This document shows, one piece after another, positions 5,401-8,931 of a stretch of 36,151 nt of DNA. Both the position numbers and the translations under genes were made by a program. How positions within the stretch are numbered: the stretch's first letter is position 1; each line of letters starts with the position of its first letter. The DNA is from Actinomycetes bacterium. GTDB lineage: Bacteria; Actinomycetota; Acidimicrobiia; Acidimicrobiales; UBA8190. The stretch covers positions 1-36,151 of the forward strand of contig JAJZYI010000001.1 of the NCBI GenBank assembly GCA_021798135.1, given 5' to 3'. The notes beneath the pieces are model-generated. The model saw only the letters and a list, made by a program, of their open reading frames with translations, ran no database searches and was not told the DNA's origin.

Positions 5401-6585
5401 ATGCGCATACTCGTCCTCGGAGGTGACGGCTACCTGGGCTGGCCCACGGCACTGCACCTCTCAGCGGTCGGCCACGACGTCGGCGTGGTCGACAACTTCG
5501 CCCGCCGTCGCTACGACGACGAGCTCGGCACGACGTCCCTGGTGCCCATCGCCTCGCTGGCGCGGCGCATCGCCGCCTGGCGCGCGGAGTCCGGGCACTC
5601 GCTGGAGAGCTACGTCGGTGACCTCACCGACCCGGTGTTCGTCCACCAGACGGTCCGGCGGTTCGGGCCCGAAGCCGTGGTGCACTTCGCCGAGCAGCGC
5701 TCCGCGCCGTACTCCATGGTCGACCAGGCCCACGCCGTGTACACCCAGACGAACAACGTGGTCGGCACCCTCAACGTCCTGTTCGCCATCGCCGAGCTGG
5801 ACCCGGCGATCCACCTGGTGAAGCTCGGTTCGATGGGGGAGTACGGCACGCCCGACATCGACATCGAGGAGGGGTGGCTCGAGGTGCACCACAAGGGTCG
5901 CACCGACCGGATGCTCTACCCCAAGCGGCCCGGGTCCTTCTACCACCTGTCGAAGGTCCACGACAGCCACAACCTGGAGTTCGCCTGCCGCGTGTGGGGC
6001 TTGGCCGCCACCGACCTCAACCAGGGCATCGTCTACGGGCAGGAGACCGAGGAGACCCGGGGGCACCGGGACCTGCTCACGCGGTTCGACTACGACGCCG
6101 TCTTCGGGACCGTCCTGAACCGCATGGTGGTCCAGGCCGCCTGCGACCACCCGCTCACCGTGTACGGGAGCGGCGGGCAGACCCGGGGCATGCTCGACAT
6201 CCGTGACACGGTCGAGTGCATCAGGCTGGCCTGCGAGCACCCGGCCGCGCCCGGGGAGTTCCGGGTGTTCAACCAGTTCACGGAGGAGTTCTCGGTCCGG
6301 GCGATCGCCTCCATGATCCAGGCGGCGGCCGGTGACGGCGTGCGCGTCCAGACGGTCCCGAACCCCCGCGTCGAGGCAGAGGACCACTACTACCATGCCG
6401 CGCACTCGGCGCTCCTGGATCTGGGGCTGCAGCCGCACCACCTGCAGGACACGCTCGTCGAGTCGCTCCTCGCCATCGCCCGCCGTCACCGCAGCCACGT
6501 CGACCCCAGCCTGTTCGAGCCGAGCGTGCAGTGGCGGTCGACGGCCAGCCCCGTCGGCCCGCGGGCGTCGGAGTTCGTGGCATGA
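5401..6585 (+). CDS. sqdB: UDP-sulfoquinovose synthase (SQD1/SqdB/Agl3 family SDR)
   Basis: Full-length resemblance, from memory, to plant SQD1 and cyanobacterial SqdB: [73 protein letters not shown] (YxxxK), [72 protein letters not shown] at 5387-5391 precedes ATG 5401. Confidence 0.88.
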
Positions 6586-7217
6586 CGATCGCGGAGCGCC
6601 TGCCGGTCGCCGCGCGGCGGGTCGGGGCGCACCAGGGCGGGGCGCACCAGGGCGGGGCGCCGCAGGGCGGGGCGCCGCAGGGCGGGGCGCCGCAGGGCGG
6701 GGCGCAACAGGGCGGGGCGAGGCGGGGCGACGCGGGACCCGCCTCCGCCGGCCTCGCTGCCGCCCGGGTCGGGCGGTGGTGGCGGTACGCGGTGACGTCG
6801 GCCGTCGCCACGGGCGTCAGCGAGACGACCCTGCTGGTGGTGTACGGCCTGCACCTCGCCGCCGCCTCGTGGGCGGCCGTGCTCGCCAGCCTGGCGGGGA
6901 CGGTGCCGTCGTACGCGATGAGCCGCTACTGGATCTGGCCCGAAGCCGACCGGCAGCGGCCCGGCCGGCAGGCGGTCGCCTACTGGGTCGTGGCGCTCGT
7001 GAGCCTCGGCGTCTCGAGCGTCGCGACCGGCATCGCCGGCGCCAACGCGCCGGGTGCGGGAGCGGCGCGGCTCGCCGTGGTCGGCCTGGCGTACGTCGGG
7101 ACCTATGGCGGGCTGTGGGTGGCGAAGTTCGTCGTCTACCAGCGGTTCCTGTTCCGCCCGGCGAGGGTGCCGGTGGCGAGCGCCCTGCCCGGTGGCGCCG
7201 CCGACCGCCGCCCGTGA
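6582..7217 (+). CDS. GtrA-like small integral membrane protein with a repeat-rich N-terminus
   Basis: ATGA overlap with the sqdB stop. Four hydrophobic helices and [11 protein letters not shown] / [12 protein letters not shown] segments resemble the GtrA family (PF04138). The N-terminal tail is (GGAxQ)n. Confidence 0.7.
6624..6730 (+). repeat. 15-bp in-frame tandem repeat, about 7 copies, encoding GGA(H/P/Q)Q pentapeptides
   Basis: ggggcgcaccagggc x2, ggggcgccgcagggc x3, ggggcgcaacagggc, then degenerate units, read directly. Lies inside the N-terminus of the GtrA-like CDS. Confidence 0.9.
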
Positions 7218-7218
7218 G

Positions 7219-8931
7219 GTGGGCGGGCGGCCCACGGCCGGGCGGAGCCCGCCGCGGCGCATCTGGCTGCTGCTGAGCGGGCTGCTGGTCCTCGTCGCCG
7301 GCGGCGTCGCCGTCGGCGTGGCCATGGGCCGCGGTTCGCCGTCCCCGGCGGCCGCACCGCTGCCCACGCTGGCCTCACCCGTCGAGCCGGCACCGAGCCT
7401 GGGAGGCAGCCCGCCCGTGCAGGGCCCGCTGGTGGCCAGCGGAGGGCCCTTCCTCCACGACCGTGCCGGGCGTGTCGTCGTCCTGCACGGCGTCAACGTC
7501 GTCTACAAGCACCCTCCCTACGAGGTCTTCCCGGACCCCGGCAAGCCGTGGAACTTCGACGCCGCCGACGCCTCGCTCATGGCCCGGCTGGGCTTCGACG
7601 TCGTGCGACTCGGGATGACCTGGCGCGGGCTCGAGCCCGGCACGGCGCCCGCCAACGATCCCGCGATCTGCCGCAAGGGCCCGCCGGGCGACCCGCACCA
7701 GTTCGACGAGGCCGTGCTCGACCGCTACCTCGGCCGGCTGAAGCAGACCGTCGACCTCCTCGGCCGCTTCCACATCTTCACGATCCTCGACATGCACCAG
7801 GACGTCTACAACGAGATGTTCGACGGCGAGGGTGCACCTGACTGGGCGGTCTGCACCGACGGGGTGCCGAGCGTGGACCCGCCGGGGCGGTGGTCGCTCG
7901 AGTACGCGACCGCCGCTGCCGGCATCGCCTACGACCACTTCTGGGACAACGACGTCGTCGGCGACCTCCAGGGACAGTTCGACCTGGTCTGGGGCAAAGT
8001 CGCCGGCTACTTCAGCGGCGATCCCTGGGTGATCGGGTACGACCCGTTCAACGAGCCGTTCTCCTCGTCGCTGGTGACGCTGGGGAACGAGCACTTCGAC
8101 GCACAGCTGGAGTGCTTCTACACCGGCCTGGCGCACGTGGGCCGGACGAGCAGCGGCGCGCCGCTGGTGTGCCCGCCCTCGGACCCGTCCGTGGGGGTCA
8201 TCCCGACGATCCTGGCGAGCGACCCCAAGCACCTCGTCTTCGACGAGCCGGACAACTTCGCCAGCCGCGGCTTTCCCACCCTCGTCGGCCCGATGGACTT
8301 CCCCAACCTCGTCTACAACGTGCACGTCTACTGCGGAGCCCGGAGCCCGAAGACCGGCAACCCCACCGACGTCGCTGCCTGCGTCTCGCAGGATGTCCGC
8401 TCGCTCGCCCTGCGGGCCGAGGACCTGCGGGAGATGGCGTCGCCGGCCCAGCCCGGAGGCCCGGCCTGGTTCGTCAGCGAGTTCGGTGCCTCCTCCGACC
8501 CCGTCCTGGTGGCCGCGTTCACGGCACGGGCGAACGCACACCTCGTCGGATGGGCCTACTGGTCGTGGCGGTACTACGCCGACCCGACCGGCAGCGCCGC
8601 CGAGTCGCTGCTCATGGCGGACGGCAGGCTGCGCTCGACGGCCCGGGTGCTCGCGCAGACCTACCCCGAAGCGGTGGCGGGCCGGCCGACATCGATCTCC
8701 TCCGACCCGGCGACGGGCGCCTTCCGCCTCCGCTACGTGCCCGGCCACGCGCTGCACGCCCCGACGGTGATCGTGGTCCCCGCGGCTGTGCACTATCCGT
8801 CCGGGTACTGCGCGACGGTCCGCGGTGGGACCGTCGTCTCCGGCCGTGACAGCGCTCTGCTCGAGGTCCGCAACGCTGCTCACGGCAGCACCGTGCAGGT
8901 GACCGTCACGCCCGGACCGTGTGCGGGCTGA
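7219..8931 (+). CDS. Membrane-anchored glycoside hydrolase family 5, endoglycoceramidase-like
   Basis: HGVNVVYK...VRLGMTWRGLEP...ILDMHQDVY...GAPDWA...FWDN...IGYDPFNEPF (acid/base NEP)...WFVSEFGAS (nucleophile) follows the block order I recall for Rhodococcus EGCase II. The GTG 7219 start gives a basic N-terminus plus the TM segment IWLLLSGLLVLVAGGVAVGVAM, 2 nt after the gtrA-like stop. The start is not certain; the track ORF begins at 7054. Confidence 0.8.
   Translation: MGGRPTAGRSPPRRIWLLLSGLLVLVAGGVAVGVAMGRGSPSPAAAPLPTLASPVEPAPSLGGSPPVQGPLVASGGPFLHDRAGRVVVLHGVNVVYKHPPYEVFPDPGKPWNFDAADASLMARLGFDVVRLGMTWRGLEPGTAPANDPAICRKGPPGDPHQFDEAVLDRYLGRLKQTVDLLGRFHIFTILDMHQDVYNEMFDGEGAPDWAVCTDGVPSVDPPGRWSLEYATAAAGIAYDHFWDNDVVGDLQGQFDLVWGKVAGYFSGDPWVIGYDPFNEPFSSSLVTLGNEHFDAQLECFYTGLAHVGRTSSGAPLVCPPSDPSVGVIPTILASDPKHLVFDEPDNFASRGFPTLVGPMDFPNLVYNVHVYCGARSPKTGNPTDVAACVSQDVRSLALRAEDLREMASPAQPGGPAWFVSEFGASSDPVLVAAFTARANAHLVGWAYWSWRYYADPTGSAAESLLMADGRLRSTARVLAQTYPEAVAGRPTSISSDPATGAFRLRYVPGHALHAPTVIVVPAAVHYPSGYCATVRGGTVVSGRDSALLEVRNAAHGSTVQVTVTPGPCAG

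Follow-up and report, generated by a model that had tools for sequence, protein, structure and literature searches.

The 36,151 nucleotides analysed here, positions 1 to 36,151 of contig JAJZYI010000001.1 from an Actinomycetes bacterium of the Acidimicrobiales (UBA8190; NCBI GenBank assembly GCA_021798135.1) and referred to below as the window, carry a compact operon that encodes a very probable UDP-sulfoquinovose synthase (SqdB), a small membrane protein of the GtrA family and a membrane-anchored enzyme of glycoside hydrolase family 5 (GH5). The interpretation preferred here, which is put forward tentatively, is that this trio is one operon serving a glycoconjugate that bears sulfoquinovose and is displayed on the outer side of the membrane. 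All the parts belong to known families; it is their combination, and the sugar donor implied by it, that would be new.

The first gene product is, judged from its sequence, a genuine enzyme of the SQD1/SqdB type and not an ordinary epimerase or dehydratase, which bears out its previous description as an SQD1/SqdB-like short-chain dehydrogenase/reductase (SDR) in an earlier, sequence-only reading of this DNA. Its residues 2-380 align with residues 3-384 of Arabidopsis SQD1 (PDB 1QRR) with 534 bits and 60% identity, and this full-length alignment spans the SQD1-specific insertion between the catalytic Ser/Thr and Tyr, with a single 3-residue gap near position 310. The structures ranked after SQD1 are decarboxylases and epimerases that reach at most 43 bits, and clustering with ordinary epimerases or dehydratases was looked for and is not the case. 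The NCBIfam model for UDP-sulfoquinovose synthase, NF041015, matches the protein end to end with 453.5 bits, below its cut-off of 575 bits; this score was considered as a warning sign and dropped as such, since the proven Arabidopsis SQD1 itself scores only 484.7 (494.4 for the Aciditerrimonas protein of clade I, see below), so that the cut-off is non-discriminating. In an alignment of 82 sequences, R101, M146, E148, Y182, H183, K186 and Q209 are invariant, the Tyr-x3-Lys motif included, Tyr149 is also kept beside Glu148, and the comparison of the catalytic and essential positions with SQD1, SqdB and Agl3 found only one of those tested to vary, position 145, which is Thr in SQD1 and Ser in the window protein and its closest relatives. 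In Agl3, mutants of R101, M145, Y182 and K186 are dead, whereas T144A, affecting the Thr equivalent to T145, is fully active (PMC4388408). The T145S exchange, which is conservative, is thus regarded as harmless, and the window SqdB very probably makes UDP-sulfoquinovose, as far as its residues allow this to be judged. It differs from SQD1, SqdB and Agl3 in belonging to a separate paralogue clade (signature L173, R177, R276 and S145), in coming from non-phototrophic Acidimicrobiales, and in that its gene is coupled to gtrA without an adjacent synthase for sulfoquinovosyldiacylglycerol (SQDG), be it SqdX, SQD2 or SqdD.

The best 80 loci of the genome collection (numbered with an L) belong to metagenome-assembled genomes (MAGs) of Acidimicrobiales, except L060, which is binned as Acidobacteriota, and the cultured Aciditerrimonas ferrireducens; contig DAHWHM010000091.1 of GCA_027335705.1 encodes an SqdB identical to that of the window. 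In a neighbour-joining tree the window SqdB falls in a long-branch clade, named clade II, its counterpart being clade I. Clade II comprises a window subclade (the window, L002-L011, L087, L091 and L102) and a sister subclade (L030, L040, L041, L057, L066 and L080), in which the placement of L030 is less certain. With the exception of L030, the members of clade II carry the signature P173L, Q177R and E276R, at positions that hold P, Q and E in the 61 other Acidimicrobiales sequences and in plant SQD1, and they also carry V249C/L, at a position that is invariant in that same set; the window subclade adds T145S and T340S. Two of the signature substitutions add positive charge (SQD1-numbered positions 173, 177, 249 and 276 are window residues 172, 176, 248 and 275). 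Identity to SQD1 is 0.60 for clade II and 0.61 for clade I. At least three MAGs (JA4.bin61, FK5.bin72 and YF2.bin99) harbor one sqdB of each clade, and clade I/clade II pairs from the same MAG (L003 and L071, L007 and L038, L004 and L058) are about 66% identical to each other. Therefore, as single MAGs carry both, the two clades are not redundant copies.

The three genes follow each other on the forward strand and are marked by their high third-position GC (0.94 for the sqdB open reading frame (ORF) and 0.91 for that of GH5) in a window with a G+C content of about 75%, and the three-gene arrangement that had been proposed is present in full. The overlap of the sqdB stop with the gtrA start as ATGA is confirmed at 6582-6585. 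The close spacing claimed for the next junction also stands, with a correction of the gap, which is 1 nt and not 2 nt: the stop codon of gtrA is followed after one nucleotide by the next in-frame GH5 start, GTG at 7219. An in-frame ATG at 5368, upstream of sqdB, is an unlikely start because of where the N-termini of orthologues begin, and a GAGGAGG similar to the GAGAGGAG run that precedes the window sqdB is found before the sqdB remnant in L129. The operon is flanked by a divergent enoyl-CoA hydratase gene upstream and a convergent GNAT acetyltransferase gene downstream, and the unit therefore consists of exactly three genes. Scans of the operon region and of the window found no sigma-70-like promoter, intrinsic terminator or Rfam element.

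The product of gtrA matches Pfam PF04138 at 32.7 bits (cut-off 26.1) over residues 68-175, covering profile positions 1-109 of 117, and its homologues are named 'putative flippase GtrA'. Its earlier description as a GtrA-like protein with four transmembrane segments holds for the family; as to the segments, the hydropathy scan shows three clear ones and a weaker fourth. Its first ~65 residues form an atypical low-complexity extension, encoded by a 15-bp tandem repeat and absent from most homologues, which are 145-200 aa long. The near-identical contig DAHWHM010000091.1 (L001 9733-9825) has one repeat unit fewer, indicating that the copy number varies between strains or assemblies. Directly downstream of sqdB, gtrA is found in L002/L086, L003, L007, L008, L009, L010/L085 and L091, and the 4-nt overlap is kept wherever gene calls existed, namely in L085 and L086; in L011, L040 and L102 the two genes are divergent. 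A gtrA gene lies less than 2 kb from sqdB in 13 of the 20 clade II loci vs none of the 64 clade I loci of Acidimicrobiales, in which a gtrA-like gene, when present, is 3.7-7.4 kb off and inside a block of unrelated housekeeping genes. SqdB and GtrA are thus probably linked in function, and the pair reads as an accessory decoration module, since it has been repeatedly gained, lost or decayed. Separately, gtrA genes of Acidimicrobiales repeatedly adjoin glycoside hydrolase genes, of family GH1 (GH1 then gtrA in L016, L022, L029, L031, L036 and others), of family GH3 (GH3 then gtrA in L066, 11398-13698) and, in the window, of family GH5; the GH1 representative has no signal peptide, and this neighbourhood may be chance or a real functional theme.

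The third protein begins with an RR motif followed by a 23-residue hydrophobic segment, and matches PF00150 (Cellulase) with 58 bits and PF18564 (Glyco_hydro_5_C) with 52.8 bits. Its acid/base motif NEP (residues 278-280; E at 8053-8055) and its nucleophile motif SEFG (residues 420-423; E at 8479-8481) are invariant in 38 orthologues and align with PDB 5CCU and the nucleophile mutant 5J14, so that the N-terminal anchor and the intact catalytic motifs seen earlier are both upheld. The orthologues share the hydrophobic segment, followed by a conserved LPSLSSPxxPAP stretch, which argues that the enzyme faces outward. Its best PDB matches are the Rhodococcus endoglycoceramidases 5CCU (103 bits) and 2OSW. 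Of the endoglycoceramidase-like character attributed to it, the GH5 and C-terminal domains and the catalytic motifs stand and a close relationship does not: against the NCBIfam endoglycoceramidase model NF051847 it scores 188 bits, short of the cut-off of 700, and it is a distant relative only. With the Rhodococcus endoglycoceramidases I and II (PDB 5CCU, 5J14, 2OSW and 6JYZ) it shares the GH5 (beta/alpha)8 domain, the PF18564 beta-sandwich and the aligned NEP and (S/T)EFG motifs, but the similarity is low, it has a membrane anchor and the LPSLSSPxxPAP linker, and it belongs to a large, well-conserved orthologue group of Acidimicrobiales, hosts that are not known to meet glycosphingolipids.

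The trio sqdB-gtrA-GH5 is found in the window, L008, L010/L085 and L091, with flanking genes that differ among these loci, and L102 holds it rearranged as gtrA(divergent)-sqdB-GH5. Surveying synteny, as the sequence-only reading had suggested, thus shows the trio in at least five lineages, one of them rearranged, in addition to two decay relics, and the linkage is kept across deep divergence (65% identity for GH5 and 70% for SqdB). Since it recurs in several species-level genomes with differing flanking genes, the adjacency is more than chance. The relic in L089 (7585-7962) is an sqdB fragment, covering residues 166-285 only, that precedes an intact gtrA-GH5 pair with a 4-nt overlap. That in L129 (2009-2127) is a deletion scar in which sqdB codons 1-17, together with the ribosome-binding site, are joined to the last ~27 codons of gtrA, with an intact GH5 gene directly downstream. 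The survival of these relics points to an old linkage. Genes from trios and genes standing alone are intermingled in the GH5 tree, which, with the relics, describes an association that is ancient and maintained, and yet a GH5 that is independent of sqdB and gtrA. Across more than 40 GH5 loci no conserved partner of GH5 was found, the recurring neighbours being unrelated and including a DUF2277 protein and an ArsR-like regulator. A GH31 gene found near two GH5 orthologues that rank among the closest (in L082 and on the P0123 contig) was considered as a sulfoquinovosidase and rejected, its product being alpha-xylosidase-like (218 bits to 7WJ9 vs ~80 to YihQ).

The sister subclade offers candidates for the transfer enzymes that the operon does not encode. 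In all six of its loci, sqdB stands beside orthologous genes of glycosyltransferase family 2 (GT2; 48-58% identity), and in L057 and L066 sqdB is followed by a GalE-like SDR gene and then by GT2, with successive 4-nt overlaps and a convergent gtrA. The best-matching families of these GT2 proteins are PpgS (polyprenyl-phospho-GalNAc synthase), dolichyl-phosphate hexose transferase and AglJ, and the best-matching structures are dolichyl-phosphate mannose synthase (DPMS, PDB 5MLZ) and ArnC; they are therefore taken to be polyprenyl-phosphate glycosyltransferases. Large polytopic membrane proteins are encoded next to sqdB/GT2 in L030, L040, L041 and L080, that of L030 being homologous to a YfhO-like family (11 members) whose genes come immediately after sqdB in the F17 group of clade I loci. 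Around the sqdB of other loci of clade I there are genes for GT2, BacA (undecaprenyl-diphosphatase) and LCP. A sulfotransferase gene is also present in the clade I sqdB-YfhO clusters (L063), and sulfatase and sulfotransferase genes lie 5-9 kb from the sqdB operon in the two closest relatives (L085, DAHUZK010000011.1, 1-1040 and 16681-20512; L086, 10735-12255), so that a wider gene set for sulfated glycans may exist. Another neighbour of clade I sqdB is family F1, a conserved protein of ~420 aa encoded directly downstream in more than 40 loci, mostly after gaps of 16-140 nt (examples are L020 9306-10565 and L035 downstream of 9149). It has an N-terminal membrane anchor and a conserved 'VVxNxGN' block, and could be either a partner or a target of glycosylation. 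As a candidate for the missing transferase it was dropped, since no Pfam family matches it and it resembles an extracellular protein that is anchored in the membrane and rich in Thr/Ser/Pro.

Systems composed of a GT2 enzyme, a GtrA-family flippase and a GT-C transferase such as YfhO decorate teichoic acids and O-antigens (PMC7389260, PMC5836110, PMC8035078). The sqdB, GT2, gtrA and YfhO-like genes of the sister lineages match these parts, and for this reason a lipid-linked, outward route is favoured for sulfoquinovose. As in GtrA/GtrB/GtrC of Shigella phages and in CsbB/GtcA/YfhO and GtlA/GtcA/GtlB of Bacillus, Listeria and Staphylococcus, a GtrA-family gene is coupled here to a gene for sugar-nucleotide supply, and in the sister lineages the same sqdB paralogue has genes for a polyprenyl-phosphate GT2 and for polytopic or YfhO-like proteins in its cluster. 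Unlike in any such system, the sugar would be sulfoquinovose, for which they offer no precedent, and in the window a GH5 hydrolase occupies the third position, with GT2 and GT-C missing there. The mycobacterial protein Rv3632, the partner of PpgS, was not used as a GtrA precedent, since the literature describes it as a GacJ/DUF2304 homologue (bioRxiv 10.1101/180810).

The model proposes that cytoplasmic SqdB turns UDP-glucose and sulfite into UDP-sulfoquinovose, an activity that its family membership suggests. A PpgS/DPMS-like GT2 encoded elsewhere in the genome would then transfer the sugar to a lipid carrier, for which polyprenyl phosphate is the likeliest choice; the chances that the route does pass through polyprenyl phosphate are considered even. 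The GtrA-family protein, to go by its family and the conserved coupling, would handle or flip the lipid-linked sugar, and a GT-C/YfhO-type transferase, also encoded elsewhere as the sister lineages suggest, would add it to an envelope glycopolymer. Finally, the co-expressed, membrane-tethered GH5, a putative retaining beta-glycosidase, could trim this envelope glycan or glycolipid or turn it over, as hydrolases from polysaccharide operons do. No other step is as weak as this one, in which GH5 would be a more constant enzyme working on the same envelope molecule as the sqdB-gtrA module. The chances that GH5 is functionally linked to sqdB-gtrA at all are about even, and that it acts on a sulfoquinovose-bearing substrate is doubtful. 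Glycoside hydrolases within polysaccharide biosynthesis operons are known, as exemplified by BcsZ, PslG and PgaB, which are likewise extracytoplasmic and co-encoded with supply or export genes for surface glycans; this is an analogy only, as there is no sequence relationship and the window operon has no synthase or polymerase gene.

Several observations weigh against this model. The 36-kb window encodes no homologue of GT2, even at E = 10, nor of GT-C or BacA, so that the support for loading the carrier and for the transfer comes from other genomes. With only 27-38% identity between the window-type GtrA and the GtrA proteins of the sister subclade, their orthology is uncertain. The GH5 orthologues (65-75% identity) are numerous and stand mostly alone beside unrelated genes, GH5 is kept after the decay of sqdB (L089) or the deletion of both sqdB and gtrA (L129) and thus needs neither of them, and in L002/L086 sqdB-gtrA is kept without GH5. 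Genes of families GT28 and GT4, 22-25 kb downstream of the trio, make a glycolipid fate possible. In addition, a sulfoquinovose-containing bacterial wall polymer was not found in the literature, and to our knowledge none has been reported. The outcome for the two processes proposed in the sequence-only reading is accordingly mixed: export of a sulfosugar gains from the same sqdB paralogue standing with polyprenyl-phosphate GT2 and GT-C-like or YfhO-like genes in sister lineages and loses from the missing GT2 and GT-C in the window, and remodelling of a glycolipid or envelope glycan by GH5 gains from the recurrent linkage to sqdB and gtrA and loses from the many solitary orthologues and from the persistence of GH5 where those genes have gone.

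It could be argued that the three genes are co-transcribed and functionally separate, with SqdB supplying an ordinary (e.g. phosphate-sparing) sulfolipid through a transferase encoded elsewhere, GtrA handling another lipid-linked sugar, GH5 serving as a secreted housekeeping hydrolase whose substrate is exogenous or part of the wall, and their neighbourhood reflecting inheritance. The wide and mostly solitary occurrence of GH5, the lack of a transferase in the operon and the parting of the modules in nature (sqdB-gtrA only in L086, gtrA-GH5 with a dead sqdB in L089, GH5 only in L129) all suit this explanation. It is nevertheless unlikely, as the linkage outlasts the divergence of GH5 and SqdB, the changes in flanking genes and the change of gene order in L102, the translational coupling is conserved, and the proximity of gtrA is specific to clade II SqdB; moreover, at least three of these MAGs have a second, clade I sqdB able to fill the housekeeping role.

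A second alternative, the nearest to the earlier idea of glycolipid remodelling, is that an unlinked lipid glycosyltransferase, either a GT4 or a GT28 resembling UgtP or the synthase of monogalactosyldiacylglycerol (MGDG), makes a sulfoquinovosyl glycerolipid from UDP-sulfoquinovose, that GtrA moves this glycolipid or a derivative outward, and that GH5 attacks the bond between lipid and sugar, releasing the head group or transferring it. The window has a candidate operon for this at 30122-34737, composed of genes for a polysaccharide deacetylase, a GT28 (MGDG_synth, diglucosyl-diacylglycerol-synthase-like), a GT4 and a methyltransferase, and L087 has a GT28 homologue at a distance of 1 kb from a clade II sqdB without gtrA. 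All relatives of GH5 with a solved structure cleave beta-glycosyl-lipid bonds. GT28 enzymes invert and give a beta-linked product open to a retaining beta-glycosidase, as GH5 would be. Nevertheless, the window GT28 is 22 kb off, such a gene stands beside sqdB in only one of the 20 clade II loci, the partners in the sister lineages are GT2 and GT-C, and the similarity of GH5 to endoglycoceramidases is low. GtrA proteins, furthermore, are tied to polyprenyl-phosphate sugars and not to glycerolipids (PMC7389260). No SQDG synthase (SqdX/SQD2 of GT4, SqdD of GT8) is linked to sqdB, and neither the operon nor the 20 kb around it contain a glycosyltransferase gene, in agreement with the absence of an adjacent SqdX or SqdD remarked on before, the nearest candidates being the GT28 and GT4 more than 20 kb away. 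A sulfoglycolipid fate is accordingly judged rather improbable.

That the clade II enzyme has changed its chemistry, supplying the GtrA pathway not with UDP-sulfoquinovose but with a 6-modified or 4-keto/5,6-ene UDP-sugar akin to it, is suggested by the derived substitutions of clade II and of the window subclade, by the second, GalE-like SDR gene beside sqdB in sister lineages and by the release of UDP-glucose-5,6-ene from Agl3 when sulfite is absent (PMC4388408). This is very improbable, as clades I and II are equally close to SQD1, every residue proven essential in Agl3 or SQD1 is kept, and the Thr to Ser exchange is conservative at a site where Agl3 tolerates Ala. Also very improbable, finally, is a GH5 that would act as an outward retaining beta-transglycosidase, replacing GT-C and moving sulfoquinovose or another sugar from a GtrA-flipped beta-glycosyl lipid to an envelope acceptor, even if it would explain why the window lineage has gtrA-GH5 where its sisters have GT2/GT-C-gtrA, why the translational coupling of gtrA and GH5 outlasts a dead sqdB in L089, and why GH1 and GH3 genes adjoin gtrA in Acidimicrobiales.

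A precedent for the preferred model, a sulfoquinovose-bearing envelope glycoconjugate, is the Agl3 pathway of Sulfolobus acidocaldarius, in which UDP-sulfoquinovose feeds archaeal N-glycans (PMC4388408, PMC2948927). In both cases the nucleotide sugar would serve a surface glycoconjugate and not a lipid of the thylakoid type. The archaeal sugar, in contrast, becomes part of a dolichol-linked oligosaccharide that is assembled on the cytoplasmic face; GtrA, GT2 and GT-C have no described part in this, and no bacterial counterpart has been described. In the literature searched, sulfoquinovose was found in lipids and archaeal N-glycans, with nothing tying it to GtrA, to polyprenol or undecaprenol, to Actinobacteria or Acidimicrobiia, or to bacterial wall glycans. 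No paper on such a pathway was found, in line with the earlier remark that none was known for actinobacteria.

The positions of the features are collected in Table 1. Among the other genes of the window, 16577-18193 (+) encodes a 538-aa protein with a VTT/DedA domain, unusually long for its family; DedA-family proteins have been proposed as undecaprenyl-phosphate translocases. At 10099-11553 (-), 1.2 kb from the operon, lies the gene for a 484-aa flavoprotein with weak Pyr_redox_2 and DAO matches and an N-terminal GAGISG dinucleotide-binding motif, which resembles the sulfide:quinone-oxidoreductase or NDH-2 type. A copper-handling cluster at 198-3057 (+) comprises genes for a small HMA protein, a P-type ATPase (437-2653) and a CsoR-like repressor (2650-3057), with names taken from the annotation of the matching contig.

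Table 1. Positions, in the window, of the sqdB-gtrA-GH5 operon, its signals and the distant glycosyltransferase genes
Feature	Position	Strand	Remarks
Shine-Dalgarno-like GAGAGGAG	5384..5391	+	9 nt before the sqdB ATG; read from sequence
sqdB, clade II paralogue, SQD1/SqdB/Agl3-family UDP-sulfoquinovose synthase	5401..6585	+	394 aa; ATG 5401, TGA 6585
gtrA, small GtrA-family membrane protein, putative flippase/handler of lipid-linked sugar	6582..7217	+	211 aa; stop TGA 7215-7217
15-bp tandem repeat, 7.2 copies	6612..6719	+	codes for (G-G-A-x-Q)n in the cytoplasmic N-terminal extension of GtrA; Tandem Repeats Finder (TRF) score 153
GH5, membrane-anchored, extracytoplasmic, with C-terminal GH5_C beta-sandwich, distantly endoglycoceramidase-like	7219..8931	+	570 aa; alternative start GTG 7192, the one placed by the gene caller
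Polysaccharide deacetylase	30122-31111		stop overlaps GTG 31108 (GTGA) in the GT28 frame
GT28, MGDG-synthase/UgtP-like	31153-32370		best NCBIfam UgtP-type; hidden beneath the 31803-33953 ORF, whose 5' extension is spurious
GT4	domain from ~32640 to 33953		best NCBIfam EpsE/MshA-type
Methyltransferase	34024-34737		after GT4

Sulfoquinovose is among the most abundant organosulfur compounds, and its production is credited almost entirely to the sulfolipid of phototrophs, archaeal N-glycans being the one well-studied exception. If the model is correct, Acidimicrobiales, which are abundant and mostly uncultured actinobacteria of soils, peat and waters, with one cultured relative, Aciditerrimonas ferrireducens JCM 15389, that has sqdB, would be a new biological source of this sugar. 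Polyprenyl-phosphate sulfoquinovose would then be a donor new to the three-component glycosylation systems, and the wall of these bacteria would bear an anionic decoration of a new type, for which no phosphate is required.

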